Shown: positions 1 to 9,312, counted from the stretch's first letter. The stretch: 64,000 bases of DNA from Escherichia coli (GCF_003334305.1 NZ_QOWS01000004.1), one strand, 5' to 3'. The notes: a model not told the origin generated them from the letters alone. Made by a program: numbers and translations.

Positions 1-657
1 GAGCAGACCATCACAGACCGGTTTATCCCCGCTGGCGCGGGGAACACGCAGACTATAACGAGGGTCGCACGCGGATCATCGGTTTATCCCCGCTGGCGCG
101 GGGAACACTACCAAACCGGAATCTTTCCATATAACGGCGGCGGTTTATCCCCGCTGGCGCGGGGAACACTTACTCGCCGGGGAATACGCCCCGCGCCACG
201 CCGGTTTATCCCCGCTGGCGCGGGGAACACCTTACTCATTCAGAACGCTGCATGAAATATGCCGGTTTATCCCCGCTGGCGCGGGGAACACACCCTCCAG
301 ATCTCGGGTGTCGGTAATGAAAACGGTTTATCCCCGCTGGCGCGGGGAACACGAGCGCGTGCCGTGCCTGGGTTCATATGATGGCGGTTTATCCCCGCTG
401 GCGCGGGGAACACGTGGTTGTTTAGGCGGGATTTGTTGCGTAAGTCGGTTTATCCCCGCTGGCGCGGGGAACACCCATTTCATCATGAACGGCGGAAATA
501 TCGTGGCGGTTTATCCCCGCTGGCGCGGGGAACACTCGTTTCAGTTCAGTTAGATTTATATCCAGCGCGGTTTATCCCCGCTGGCGCGGGGAACACGCTG
601 GCCGTCGTTTTTACTCAGTAACCGCCAACGGTTTATCCCCGCTGGCGCGGGGAACAC
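1..657 (-). CRISPR. Type I-E CRISPR array, truncated by the window edge; 11 repeats and 10 complete 32-nt spacers
   Basis: 29-nt repeat CGGTTTATCCCCGCTGGCGCGGGGAACAC (plus-strand reading) at 19,80,141,202,263,324,385,446,507,568,629 with a constant 61-nt period; leader and cas2 lie at the 3' side on plus, so the array is transcribed on the minus strand. Confidence 0.97.
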
Positions 658-753
658 ACTAAGCATACATAACTGTTTTTAAACAAATTTATTCCGCATC
701 AACAATCTACCAACTAAATTAAAACATTTCCTTATTTTTAAAGAACGGATAAC
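658..753 (-). promoter_or_regulatory. CRISPR leader (AT-rich) between the last repeat and the cas2 stop
   Basis: AT-rich 96 nt immediately after the leader-proximal repeat; contains ACAATCTACCAACT, a motif shared with the leader of the second array. Confidence 0.8.
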
Positions 754-1047
754 TTATTGATTATCAACAGGAAGAAAAGAAACCAAACGTAACCCATCCA
801 AATCCACCGGAATACGTCTGTTTTCTCCCCAGGTCTGAAATTCAAAACCCGACTCGGTATTGGTCGCCCAGGCCATCACCACATTTCCGCAACCAGCCAG
901 TTGGGTAATTTGCTGCCAGATCATCTCCCGAATACGTTTTGATGTATCACCAACATACACACCGGCACGCACTTCCAGTAGCCAGATTGCGAGCCGTCCA
1001 CGTAAGCGCGGCGGGACATTTTCTGTAACAACCACGACCATGCTCAT
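754..1047 (-). CDS. cas2: Cas2 adaptation endoribonuclease (type I-E)
   Basis: 97-aa [37 protein letters not shown]...; ATGA overlap with the cas1 stop; adjacent to leader. Confidence 0.95.
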
Positions 1048-6515: not shown

Positions 6516-6612
6516 ACGCATCCTCTCGTAAAAAAGACCATCCCAGGTCGGTTGTCCATCTTTCCATCCTTTTCGGTGTATCAACTATTCAGAGAGTCCT
6601 GTCGCAGACATC

Positions 6613-9312
6613 TCAACCAACCTTGCCAATCAATCCTTCCGTAGCCGAATACCCGCAACTTTCGTCATCGTTGACTAAAATCACGTTTGCCATCTCCGGA
6701 TCTTGTCGCTGTTCAATGCACCACAGCCTGAACGCCTCTCCCTCCAGTAAAGAAAACTCATCCCGATGTTTTTTCCACCAGCTTCGGCGCACTCTGACAA
6801 CGCTCATTTCCCATGCGTGAGCACCGGTGGCATAAGGCTTCACCACACCGTCAATACAGGTAGCCAGCCACAGGGAAACAGACTCCTCAGCCAGACGTGT
6901 CGACAGTTTTTCCGGGAGGTAATCGTTGATATTGGCGGCATAGCCGGGCCTGAAGTTCAGCACAAACTTTTTAGCCATTGCGCGATCGCAGTAATATTTG
7001 CCCACTTGCTCCTGCTCGCTGCGGGCAAATCCTTCCGGCATTACCACGTCCTCACCGTAGACGGATTCAATAAGAAGCCGGGCTGCGTATGGCATCTGAA
7101 TAGCACCTTGCTCACGCAGCACACGCTGCGTCAGCCAGATTCGCCCATGATCGGGATAGACAAATGCACTGTTACGCATGGCACTGCCAAACCATTCGTC
7201 GCCAGGAGAGTCGTCCCAGACGGGAGCCAGAATCAGCAATTCAGGGGGGGAACGCTCGTCCTTTCCGTCACGCTTTAACTGACCATTAATATCGCGGATA
7301 TGCCGCTGTAATCGTCCTGCTCGCTGAATCAGCAAATCAACAGGGGCCAGGTCGGAGATCATTTCGTCCAGGTCAATATCCACGCTTTGCTCAATTACTT
7401 GTGTACAAACAATGACTTGCGACGCTCTCTGTAAACTACAATATTTACCAAAGCGTGCCAGTGTCTCCGTTTCAATTCGCTGGCGATCGCTAAAAGCAAA
7501 GCGGCTATGAAAAAGTGAAAGGCTGGAAGCAGGAATGACGCCGCGGGCAAGCAGCTGACGATGAACCTTAATAGCGTCATCGACAGAATTCCGGATCCAG
7601 GCGATGCATTTCCCCTGACTTACCGCCGATTCGATACGCGCAATACACTCTTGTTCACTATGAAGCCAACCCACGCTGACGCTACGCTCAACGTCTTTGC
7701 GCGTCGCTACCCGGTGTGAGTTCACATCGGATTTCGTGACATGCGTCAGCCAGGGGTAATCATCCTTTTCCAGGAACGGAGCTTCTTGCAGGCCCTCTGT
7801 ACCCCGCGCAAAGGCAGCGACGAGTTTGTCGCGCTGCTGTTGAGATAACGTGGCAGAAAGCAAAATAACGCTGTTTCCGCCACGCGCCTGCCGCTCGATC
7901 AACCCTTCAAGAATGCACGACATGTAAGCGTCACAGGCGTGGATCTCATCAGCCAGCAGGATTTTGTTACTCAGCCCCAGAAGCCGCAGATTATTATGTT
8001 TGAACGGCATCACCGCCATCATCGCCTGATCCAGCGTGCCGACGCCAATTTCAGCCAGCAACGCCTTCTTGTTACTGTCGGCAAACCAGGCCGCACATCC
8101 CTGACTGAACGTTTGTTCATCCGGTTCTTCTGACCCGACTAAATCACCAGACCAGAGTGATTCATTAAAGCGGTCCATTAATGTGCGGGCACTATGTGCC
8201 AGCACCAGGCTGGGGCGGGATTCTGGCGAATAGAAAGCAAGCCAGGTTTTGACCAGCCGATCGTACATGGCATTGGCCGTTGCCATTGTTGGCAGACCAA
8301 AAAACAGCCCCTGAGCTTTCCCCGCAGCTATCAACCTGTGCGCCAGGATAAGCGCCGCTTCTGTTTTACCTGCGCCAGTCACATCTTCCAGAATAAATAA
8401 CTGCGGTCCTTGCTGGCTGATATCCAGATCCAGCACCTTTTGCTGTAACGGTGTCGGATTCTCAATAAAAGGAAACAGCGTATTAATTCCGTTGAAAGGC
8501 GCGACTTTTGCTTTTAGAGGAAAGACGGTTAAGGCGTTTTGAGCCTGAATTAAAGTTTTCTGCCAGTAACCTTTAATATCCATTGGGTGTGCGACGCGTG
8601 GAAAAAATCGCGTTGACGAACCCGTCCAGTCTGCGAGCACGACGGTTGCAGAGATATACCAGGAAAGGTGTTTTATAAGTTCAATGCCCTCATCATCATC
8701 CCAGAATGCGGGGATCTCTATGAGCGGAAACAGTGGTTTGATTTCAAGGAGAAAATCTCGTGCTGCAGCTTTGTCTTCAGGCAGAAAATTATCCAATTCA
8801 TCCATACGATCAGGGGGCCGACCATGATGCCCTGTCGTCACGGGCATCCACATTTCTATCACTCGCCTAAGTTTGCGCGGAGAGAGCGAAGATGAAGGAA
8901 GTAACTCCTGACATTCACTTAAATAATGATTCCACAACCAGTAGCCCAGCGTTGAATGAGAGATTTTTTCGTAATTTTTTCTGGCACCTTCCTGAATCTT
9001 GAGTTCAGGGGGCAGGTAAAGTTGTTGAAAAGAGCGGGCAAATTTTCCAATATCGTGCCAGCACAGCAACCAGGCGAAAAATTGAGCCGCCTGTTCCTTG
9101 TCAGAAATCCCTAATTGACGAAAATAATCAGCCAGCCCGAAGCAATTTCTTTTAACCATTAAATAGCCCATCGCGGCTACATCCAGCGAATGCCAGCAAA
9201 GAAGGTGATAGTCGTCGCCCCCGTCTTTCTCGCCGCGTCGGGTTTTTCCCCAGAAATCAAAAAAAGTCACAATATTTTTATCCTTCAGTAAACTTAAAGG
9301 ATATTTACGCAT
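6613..9312 (-). CDS. cas3: Cas3 HD nuclease / SF2 helicase
   Basis: 899-aa ORF; HD-type N-terminus (LLCWHSLDVAAMGYL), helicase motifs (DVTGAGKTEAA, DEIHACD); heads the cas operon. Confidence 0.95.
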   Translation of the reverse strand: MRKYPLSLLKDKNIVTFFDFWGKTRRGEKDGGDDYHLLCWHSLDVAAMGYLMVKRNCFGLADYFRQLGISDKEQAAQFFAWLLCWHDIGKFARSFQQLYLPPELKIQEGARKNYEKISHSTLGYWLWNHYLSECQELLPSSSLSPRKLRRVIEMWMPVTTGHHGRPPDRMDELDNFLPEDKAAARDFLLEIKPLFPLIEIPAFWDDDEGIELIKHLSWYISATVVLADWTGSSTRFFPRVAHPMDIKGYWQKTLIQAQNALTVFPLKAKVAPFNGINTLFPFIENPTPLQQKVLDLDISQQGPQLFILEDVTGAGKTEAALILAHRLIAAGKAQGLFFGLPTMATANAMYDRLVKTWLAFYSPESRPSLVLAHSARTLMDRFNESLWSGDLVGSEEPDEQTFSQGCAAWFADSNKKALLAEIGVGTLDQAMMAVMPFKHNNLRLLGLSNKILLADEIHACDAYMSCILEGLIERQARGGNSVILLSATLSQQQRDKLVAAFARGTEGLQEAPFLEKDDYPWLTHVTKSDVNSHRVATRKDVERSVSVGWLHSEQECIARIESAVSQGKCIAWIRNSVDDAIKVHRQLLARGVIPASSLSLFHSRFAFSDRQRIETETLARFGKYCSLQRASQVIVCTQVIEQSVDIDLDEMISDLAPVDLLIQRAGRLQRHIRDINGQLKRDGKDERSPPELLILAPVWDDSPGDEWFGSAMRNSAFVYPDHGRIWLTQRVLREQGAIQMPYAARLLIESVYGEDVVMPEGFARSEQEQVGKYYCDRAMAKKFVLNFRPGYAANINDYLPEKLSTRLAEESVSLWLATCIDGVVKPYATGAHAWEMSVVRVRRSWWKKHRDEFSLLEGEAFRLWCIEQRQDPEMANVILVNDDESCGYSATEGLIGKVG

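Follow-up and report, generated by a model that had tools for sequence, protein, structure and literature searches.

Why should an Escherichia coli strain carry a CRISPR-Cas locus of type I-E in which Cas1 looks like that of K-12, whereas the proteins of the Cascade complex hardly do? In type I-E systems, the array transcript is cut by Cas6e at the repeat hairpin, and Cascade (Cse1, Cse2, Cas7, Cas5 and Cas6e), loaded with the crRNA, recognises a match that is flanked by a PAM and makes an R-loop; Cas3 is then recruited, and nicks and unwinds the target. The uptake of new spacers is the task of Cas1-Cas2, which place them at the repeat nearest the leader. The locus studied here is located at one end of a 64,000-nucleotide stretch of DNA from E. 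coli strain A7 (the window). Its gene content, order and sequence indicate that it is, very probably, the common cas-E1 allele of type I-E, the majority version in the species. This allele is already known, having been described between 2010 and 2014 (Almendros 2014, PMC3903273; Touchon & Rocha 2010), and the oddness of the A7 locus arises only by comparison with K-12, which carries a rarer replacement version.

The cas operon of strain A7 and its array

The genes are encoded on the minus strand in the order cas3, cse1, cse2, cas7, cas5, cas6e, cas1 and cas2, followed by an L1 leader and the CRISPR2.1 array, and the locus is framed by hok/sok and cysH on one side and by iap on the other. RefSeq annotates all eight cas genes in E. 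coli A7; each of the eight encoded proteins scores above the cut-off of its curated NCBIfam model for I-E, and both K-12-specific models fail. The two signature genes of type I-E are present: cse1/casA (4953-6515, 520 aa, with an ATG at 6515-6513 and a GAGAGGA ribosome-binding site) scores 609 bits against TIGR02547 (cut-off 70) and 100.7 against the K-12-specific model PRK09693 (cut-off 576), and cse2/casB (4420-4956, 178 aa) scores 99 bits against TIGR02548 (cut-off 28.5). The gene order and the palindromic 29-nt repeat, with its 7-bp stem and 32-nt spacers, are likewise those of type I-E.

Cas3 (6613-9312, 899 aa, stop codon at 6613-6615) is a fusion of an HD nuclease and an SF2 helicase. 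It scores above the cut-offs of TIGR01587 and TIGR01596 and below that of the K-12-specific PRK09694 (423, cut-off 569), and in global alignment, used for all protein identities to K-12, it is 32% identical to its K-12 counterpart (70% to that of Salmonella). Residues H86/D87, K316 and D455/E456 align with H74/D75, K320 and D452/E453 of K-12, which we take to be the HD nuclease, Walker A and DExH residues, all conserved. Identities to K-12 and Salmonella are 22% and 74-75% for Cse1, about 24-27% and 67% for Cse2, 33% and 84% for Cas7 (cas7e, 3353-4408, 351 aa; TIGR01869, 441.9 bits), which matches Cse4 of PDB 9uer with E=1e-187, 37% and 80% for Cas5 (cas5e, 2596-3342, 248 aa; TIGR01868, 161 bits), and 30% and 75% for Cas6e (1964-2614, 216 aa with the RefSeq start; TIGR01907, 284 bits), in which one His aligns with H20 of K-12. 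Cas1 (cas1e, 1047-1967, 306 aa, GTG start; TIGR03638, 380.6 bits, cut-off 215.6) conserves residues E141/H208/D218/D221 and is 84% identical in amino acids, and about 71% in nucleotides, to K-12, and 95% in amino acids to Salmonella; Cas2 (cas2e, 754-1047, 97 aa; TIGR01873, 133.8 bits, cut-off 33) is 86% and 96% identical to the two, with dS saturated against K-12. The original prediction of an alternative, Salmonella-like I-E allele is thus borne out (Cse1 75%, Cas7 84%, Cas3 70%, Cas1/Cas2 95-96% to Salmonella). All cas genes are intact and the catalytic residues kept, and crRNA-guided interference and spacer acquisition may occur.

In the window, the array (1-657) contains 11 perfect repeats, ten full spacers and a partial spacer (1-18), the repeats being exact minus-strand copies of GTGTTCCCCGCGCCAGCGGGGATAAACCG between 19 and 657 with a period of 61 nt (29-nt repeat plus 32-nt spacer). 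It extends past the window start, and the A7 genome has 13 copies. The repeat was expected to be one nucleotide off that of K-12, and it is: the K-12 consensus (GAGTTC..., in 10 of the 13 copies read from NC_000913) differs by a single base at position 2, which is not part of the 7-bp stem; the two repeats have this stem in common. A search for spacer targets in 50,697 phage and 72,556 plasmid records found none, the only matches being other CRISPR arrays and one chance match. The adjacent leader (658-753, 96 nt, AT-rich, GC 0.26) is of the L1, E1-linked type, being 95-100% identical to the leaders of O157:H7 and O103:H2, 62% to that of K-12 (L2) and 66% to that of Salmonella.

Several features place the locus with cas-E1. 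Its cas genes fall into a cluster with those of E. albertii, Salmonella and E. coli of the O157:H7 type, apart from those of K-12 and E. fergusonii, and the GC content of its cas genes is 0.49-0.55 per gene versus 0.44-0.51 in K-12, in agreement with the published cas gene values of 53.5% for cas-E1 and 45.6% for cas-E2 (PMC3903273). Membership of cas-E2 is contradicted by the low identity of the Cas3 and Cascade proteins to K-12 (22-37%) and by DNA that aligns nowhere outside cas1-cas2. Hok/sok is located between cysH and cas3, as in cas-E1, and is reported missing only from E2 strains (PMC3903273); it comprises an intact Hok-family toxin gene (hok, 9507-9659, in a region extending to 9801, minus strand) and an Rfam sok/mok match at 9644-9801 (113 bits), sok being the only RNA family detected by Rfam in positions 1-10000. 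Homology to K-12 (97.8%) resumes at 9657 and, at the other boundary, extends from iap as far as the first repeat. The DNA peculiar to the allele begins within the array and ends at 9656, at the hok start. Among complete E. coli genomes (n=5426), and with at least 80% of the query covered for either allele, the A7 allele was found in 2420, including W, O157:H7 and O103:H2, and the K-12 allele in 1114.

Divergence from K-12 and origin of the allele

The claim that Cas1 is close to K-12 and Cascade divergent holds for proteins, with 84-86% identity for Cas1/Cas2 against 22-37% for Cas3 and Cascade, but not for DNA, since cas1-cas2 are only about 70-75% identical and their dS is saturated. Saturation of dS against K-12 extends to all cas genes, the values for cysH and cysI being 0.07-0.14; cas1 and cas2 agree with K-12 at 37-46% of third codon positions and have a pS of 0.74-0.84. 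By contrast, dN against K-12 separates cas1 and cas2 (0.13) from the remaining six cas genes (0.73-1.10). In the comparison with Salmonella, cas1/cas2 have a dN of 0.03 and the effector genes one of 0.09-0.22, and the ratio of effector to adaptation dN is 3-7-fold between E1 and Salmonella versus 5.6-8.5-fold between E1 and E2. The contrast between a distant Cascade and a near Cas1 arises mostly from rates, the effector genes having evolved 3-7 times faster than Cas1/Cas2; Cas7 has diverged between E1 and E2 somewhat beyond a uniform clock (dN ratio 5.8 versus 3.0). Across the best 80 gammaproteobacterial loci in a Cas1 scan of genome contigs, Cas1 is 75-95% identical regardless of the effector module (Salmonella is not among these 80, and its locus was taken via a protein search), and the 84% identity to K-12 is of the same level as that to Cas1 of Pectobacterium, Dickeya or Serratia.

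These rates bear on the proposal that the A7 allele is a mosaic, in which a Salmonella-like cas3-Cascade part was joined to K-12-like cas1-cas2-CRISPR with a breakpoint near cas6e/cas1. Protein identity to K-12 does leap from 30% (Cas6e) to 84% (Cas1) at position 1967, and other lineages show swaps at exactly this junction. However, cas1/cas2 DNA is only about 71-73% identical to K-12 and as saturated as that of the Cascade genes, A7 Cas1 is 98% identical to that of E. albertii and 95% to that of Salmonella but only 84% to that of K-12, and effector genes outpace adaptation genes in dN by a similar ratio whether E1 is compared with Salmonella or with E2. Moreover, the same genomes (E. albertii, Escherichia sp. 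and Pseudocitrobacter) are the nearest neighbours of both the adaptation and the effector module in 1000/1000 bootstraps, and neither sliding-window DNA identity nor codon-position analysis against K-12 detected a K-12-like segment inside the operon. We thus regard a mosaic as highly improbable; as far as synonymous sites and identity profiles tell, there is no breakpoint inside the A7 cas operon. A very old exchange may belong to the shared history of E1 and E2, and module swaps are seen elsewhere in the family.

The original prediction also had the allele recombining into a K-12-like backbone. The backbone is indeed that of an ordinary E. coli chromosome, with flanks 97.8-97.9% identical to K-12 (97.8% for cysH, cysI and cysJ); the cas6e|cas1 breakpoint did not survive the analysis above, and the implied direction of the event is not supported. 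In the published view, cas-E1 is ancestral and cas-E2 the replacement (PMC3903273), with which the counts of 2420 and 1114 genomes agree, as does the presence of E1 in E. albertii and Salmonella. We treat E1 as ancestral on the basis of published parsimony and of this distribution, not of a rooted tree. E2 is described as an insertion of one entire module at the array, with the L1 and L2 leaders linked to the cas variant (PMC3903273), and four Cas1 groups and whole-locus replacement have been described (PMC2886076). In K-12, the whole stretch between the interior of the array and the hok gene would be a cas-E2 replacement.

Could the whole locus instead have been acquired recently by the A7 strain or its lineage, from Salmonella or another enterobacterium? 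The cas phylogeny of Escherichia and Salmonella does not follow their species tree (PMC2886076), the cas genes differ from the flanks in GC content, E1 sub-variants recombine (PMC3903273) and in one E. coli cluster Cse1 reaches only 83% identity. Yet the cas DNA is 68-81% identical to Salmonella, which does not exceed the flanking cysH/cysI (84-86%), and the Salmonella allele occupies the same cysH-iap site. The cas set is 91-100% identical in E. albertii, and recent arrival, which we consider very unlikely, is hard to reconcile with an allele that 2420 E. coli genomes carry and that the literature reports from every phylogroup except B2 and regards as the most ancient arrangement (PMC3903273).

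A broader reading, which we put forward as a speculation that is rather unlikely to hold in all its parts, is that in gammaproteobacterial type I-E systems Cas1-Cas2, leader and repeat form a near-invariant, host-tracking 'chassis', onto which effectors have been repeatedly swapped at cas6e|cas1. The effector modules (cas3 to cas6e) would form at least two or three families with less than 35% mutual identity, and K-12, rather than the A7 allele, would be a chimera of an Enterobacteriaceae-type adaptation module and an E2-family effector. K-12 Cas1 is 95% identical to that of a locus with an E1-family effector, and the closest relative of the K-12 effector in the compared set is that of Citrobacter amalonaticus. 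Module shuffling as such is an established general principle (PMC6452270).

Transcription of cas3 and the Cascade genes

The spacer between cas3 and cse1 (6516-6612, minus strand) is 97 nt long, as expected and in agreement with RefSeq coordinates, versus 414 nt in K-12. It is conserved across Escherichia, and the O157 and O103 alleles have spacers of equal length; in relatives, cas3 and cse1 most often overlap by 4 nt. A weak 4-bp hairpin followed by T6 (6530-6549) is also conserved across Escherichia. Strict and relaxed scans, which report consensus matches only, revealed no convincing promoter or terminator in the spacer, and even at relaxed thresholds no sigma-70-like match in 6516-6800, with six weak ones in 9313-9506. 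No stable RNA fold was predicted in the spacer (z=+0.48).

Upstream of cas3, an AT-rich spacer (9313-9506, minus strand, 194 nt, GC 0.28) is allele-specific, has no K-12 homology and is a candidate promoter and silencing region, probably silenced by H-NS. From such a control region, transcription would probably read through the 97-nt spacer into cse1, and co-transcription of cas3 with Cascade appears plausible. The hairpin and T6 could attenuate this read-through. In Salmonella Enteritidis, a cas3 deletion raised cse1 20-fold (PMC7168661), which is compatible with read-through from upstream.

The alternative is an organisation in two units, as in K-12 and S. Typhi, with cas3 alone and cse1-to-CRISPR transcribed from a LeuO/H-NS-controlled promoter. 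It concerns the regulatory part only, and its promoter would sit in the 97-nt spacer or in the cas3 3' end. S. Typhi, with an allele of the same family, is reported to have five transcription units, cas3 being independent of a LeuO/H-NS-regulated cse1-to-CRISPR operon with its own promoter (PMC8039139; PMC7168661), which makes an internal promoter conceivable in E1 as well. The high conservation of the spacer, with its small hairpin and T6, points the same way. Against this, 6516-6800 is devoid of sigma-70-like matches, the spacer is not AT-rich (GC 0.47 versus 0.295 for the 414-nt K-12 promoter region, Pcas), cas3 and cse1 overlap in most relatives, and the hairpin has only 4 bp and lies outside the predicted fold. 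An additional cse1 promoter, if any, would have to sit inside the cas3 3' end. Overall, two units strike us as a serious candidate of somewhat less than even probability. A 2026 paper on LrhA deals with the K-12 Pcas only.

Relation to known type I-E systems

Mechanistic work on E. coli type I-E has been carried out almost entirely in K-12, and sequenced E. coli with cas-E1, which also occurs in Salmonella, are about twice as numerous as those with the K-12 allele. Because the Cas3 and Cascade proteins of the two are so dissimilar and the K-12 cas3-casA promoter region has no counterpart in A7 cas-E1, K-12 results on regulation (H-NS, LeuO, Pcas), Cas3-Cascade stoichiometry and anti-CRISPR sensitivity may not transfer to most natural E. 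coli, a caution already raised by Almendros et al. (2014) (PMC3903273).

The closest known system is 'arrangement A' of cas-E1 (Almendros et al. 2014, mBio, PMC3903273), with which the A7 locus shares gene set, gene order, the site from cysH-hok/sok to iap, repeat and leader type, and from which it shows no substantive difference, its array having 13 perfect repeats with an iap-proximal repeat that is not degenerate. The 'var. B-8552' of Slukin et al. 2025 (PMC12736100) is another name for the cas-E1 variant, and the A7 DNA is 93.7-98.7% identical to the O157:H7, O103:H2 and W alleles.

The Salmonella enterica locus (cysH-sopD-cas3 ... cas2-CRISPR1-iap) occupies the same chromosomal site with the same gene order, an identical 29-nt repeat and a leader of the same length (96 nt). 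Its Cas1/Cas2 are 95-96% and its effector proteins 67-84% identical to those of A7, and its DNA 68-81%, about species-level divergence. It differs from A7 by a cas3-cse1 gap of 11 nt instead of 97 nt, by sopD upstream of cas3 in place of hok/sok and by a leader only 66% identical.

The K-12 locus (cas-E2) has subtype, gene order, chromosomal location, repeat hairpin and catalytic residues in common with the A7 allele. Its Cas1/Cas2 are 84-86% identical to those of A7, whereas for Cas3 and the Cascade proteins identity is only 22-37%; its cas3-casA promoter region is AT-rich and 414 nt long where A7 has 97 nt of ordinary GC, and it has no hok gene, an L2 leader (62% identical) and a lower cas GC (0.44-0.51).

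The cas-E1 allele of strain A7

The window allele is cas-E1 as named by Almendros et al. (2014, PMC3903273), and matches the published description on every testable point; it is a known allele and unremarkable for E. coli. According to that work, cas-E1 is the major and most ancient E. coli form, groups with Salmonella and E. albertii and has a GC content of ~53.5%, its own leader (L1) and an intact hok/sok adjoining cas3; cas-E2, present in K-12 and a minority of strains, has 45.6% GC, leader L2 and no hok. Both variants were re-described in a 2025 survey (PMC12736100). Of 5426 complete E. 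coli genomes, 2420 (W, O157:H7 and O103:H2 among them) carry the window allele and 1114, including many laboratory derivatives, the K-12 allele, an allele being counted as present at a query coverage of at least 80%.

All components lie on the minus strand: cas3 (6613-9312), cse1 (4953-6515), cse2 (4420-4956), cas7 (3353-4408), cas5 (2596-3342), cas6e (1964-2614), cas1 (1047-1967), cas2 (754-1047), an AT-rich leader of 96 nt (658-753) and a CRISPR array (19-657) of 11 perfect 29-nt repeats and 32-nt spacers that extends past the window start. The sequence NZ_CP028767.1 (E. coli A7, orangutan faeces) is 100% identical to the window, and RefSeq genes and coordinates agree. The GC content per cas gene is 0.49-0.55, versus 0.44-0.51 in K-12, and the leader shares 95-100% identity with its O157 and O103 counterparts and 62% with that of K-12. 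All eight Cas proteins exceed the curated NCBIfam cut-offs for I-E families; the window proteins score under the cut-offs of the K-12-trained models PRK09694 (Cas3) and PRK09693 (CasA). Positions aligned to K-12 catalytic residues are kept in Cas3, Cas6e and Cas1, and the system looks intact at the sequence level. The 10 complete spacers (window 1-657) gave no match to phage and plasmid collections at blastn sensitivity, save other CRISPR arrays and one chance match.

A 351-residue Cse4 chain (PDB 9uer) matches the window Cas7 with E=1e-187, so that a solved structure exists for an E1- or Salmonella-type subunit; against a Thermobifida-type Cas7 (5u07) this Cas7 reaches 154 bits, more than the 104 bits against K-12 CasC (4qyz). 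Cas proteins 94-100% identical to the window allele also occur in two MAGs labelled 'Bacillota bacterium' (L003) and 'Collinsella sp.' (L079), most likely as mis-binned E. coli contigs.

Allele boundaries and divergence from K-12

The window repeat reads GTGTTCCCCGCGCCAGCGGGGATAAACCG and, as predicted originally, differs by one nucleotide from that of K-12, whose consensus begins GAGTTC in 10 of 13 copies (NC_000913); the differing base is not part of the 7-bp stem, which the two repeats share. The oldest, iap-proximal K-12 repeat (3702-3730 in the K-12 locus, L001) is degenerate and begins GTGTTC, with the E1-type base, the remaining array having GAGTTC; the corresponding A7 repeat (5198-5226 in L002) is a perfect copy. 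This K-12 pattern fits the published insertion of an E2 module into a pre-existing array.

Between cysH and cas3 (9507-9801, minus strand), the window carries a hok-family toxin gene that is intact (50 aa) and accompanied by its sok RNA region. Homology to K-12 (97.8%) restarts with the hok start codon at 9657, so that K-12 retains no more of this module than the sokX side. On the opposite flank, A7 and K-12 are collinear between iap and the first repeat. As a result, the DNA specific to this allele extends from within the array as far as 9656, slightly past the limit first proposed (9312). The original prediction had this allele recombined into a K-12-like backbone; the published direction is the reverse, E2 being a replacement of the entire cas set via a module inserted at the CRISPR array (PMC3903273). 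Touchon and Rocha (2010, PMC2886076) had earlier reported that Cas1 falls into discrete groups in conflict with the species tree and that the whole locus has undergone replacement at this site.

Pairwise global alignments against K-12 bore out the predicted contrast between a divergent Cascade, Cas6e included, and a Cas1 close to K-12: identity to K-12 is 32% for Cas3, 22% for Cse1, 24% for Cse2, 33% for Cas7, 37% for Cas5 and 30% for Cas6e, and is high only for Cas1 (84%) and Cas2 (86%). The implied mosaic with a K-12-like cas1 end was rejected, no internal breakpoint being found: cas1 and cas2 are only ~71-73% identical to K-12 in DNA, with 37% and 46% identical third codon positions (pS 0.84 and 0.74), and match cas3 and the Cascade genes in saturation (dS is 0.07-0.14 for cysH/cysI). 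Furthermore, the adaptation (cas1-cas2) and effector (cas3 to cas6e) modules of the window share their nearest neighbours in 1000/1000 bootstraps. The dN values relative to K-12 are 0.13 for cas1/cas2 and 0.73-1.10 for effector genes, and those between E1 and Salmonella 0.03 and 0.09-0.22, i.e., effector/adaptation ratios of 5.6-8.5-fold (E1-E2) and 3-7-fold (E1-Salmonella). The saturated synonymous sites, low dN and shared neighbours indicate that strong purifying selection on Cas1-Cas2, rather than an operon breakpoint, mainly explains the pattern. Among 80 loci (the best in a Cas1 search, one genome per species), Cas1 is 75-95% identical from Escherichia to Shewanella, Methylophaga and Parasutterella, whatever the effector, and the window Cas1 is equidistant (84%) from K-12 and from Pectobacterium or Dickeya.

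Module exchange at the cas6e/cas1 junction probably does occur in this family, in members other than the window. K-12 Cas1+Cas2 are closest (94%; 1000/1000 bootstraps) to loci with E1-family effectors; the nearest match to the K-12 effector is in Citrobacter amalonaticus (Cas7 74%), where Cas1+Cas2 are just 85% identical to those of K-12. Between K-12 (L001 4570-5773) and L014 (10001-11450), a locus with E1-family cas3-Cascade genes, cas1-cas2-leader DNA is ~80% identical (Cas1 95% in amino acids), with a step from ~40% to ~80% exactly at the cas1 start. The K-12 allele itself thus appears to be chimeric. Loci of the same genus or family with Cas1+Cas2 91-99% but Cas7 30-38% identical (L019/L025, L038/L028/L033, L065/L066, L068/L077, L057/L064) in Citrobacter, Marinomonas, Alteromonadaceae, Halopseudomonas and uncultured Gammaproteobacteria suggest that effector modules were swapped repeatedly onto a conserved adaptation module, which fits the established principle of module shuffling (PMC6452270).

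The cas3-cse1 spacer

The predicted short gap between cas3 and cse1 measures 97 nt (414 nt in K-12). All three E. coli E1 sub-variants examined share the 97-nt length, and E. albertii and Escherichia sp. have 8 nt fewer (83 nt where the window has 91 with the same start-codon call); the spacer is well conserved across these alleles. With a GC content of 0.47, versus 0.295 in the K-12 promoter region, it is not AT-rich; the AT-rich stretch of the window allele lies upstream of cas3 (9313-9506, 194 nt, GC 0.28). Consensus scans of the spacer detected neither a terminator nor, with strict or relaxed thresholds, a sigma-70-like match, and folding was no better than for shuffled sequence. Its sole terminator-like feature is a 4-bp hairpin (GACC-N6-GGTC) followed by TTTTTT (6530-6549, minus strand), immediately preceding the ribosome-binding site of cse1. 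Although below the scan threshold, this element is conserved among Escherichia E1 alleles and could reduce transcription from cas3 into cse1. Among relatives, a 4-nt cas3/cse1 overlap is the commonest junction in both effector families, long AT-rich spacers like that of K-12 being scattered exceptions. Taken together, these features make read-through into cse1 from a promoter upstream of cas3 the simplest expectation, and a report that deleting cas3 in Salmonella raised cse1 20-fold (PMC7168661) is compatible with it. Alternatively, cas3 and the cse1-to-CRISPR operon could be separate transcription units, as is reported for S. Typhi (PMC8039139); given the Salmonella gap of 11 nt, the operon promoter would then sit inside cas3. 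We consider the odds of cas3-Cascade co-transcription in the window roughly even.

Relationship with Salmonella and E. albertii

The E. albertii cas set encodes proteins 85-100% identical to those of the window. A Salmonella enterica locus, reached via the commonest Salmonella Cse1 cluster, has the same repeat as the window and the same position between cysH and iap. A second Salmonella enterica Cse1 (P0091; 570 aa) is very different (40% identical), and an E1 Cse1 sub-variant in E. coli (P0003; 711 member sequences) is only 83% identical, indicating further allele diversity at this locus in both species. As predicted for an alternative, Salmonella-like I-E allele, the effector proteins are 67-84% identical to those of Salmonella (Cas3 70%, Cse1 75%, Cse2 67%, Cas7 84%, Cas5 80%, Cas6e 75%), with Cas1 at 95%, Cas2 at 96% and the flanking CysH and CysI at 93.5%. 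In DNA, the cas genes (68-81%) are not more similar than flanking housekeeping genes (84-86%), which is more consistent with a long history of the locus in both genera than with recent transfer.
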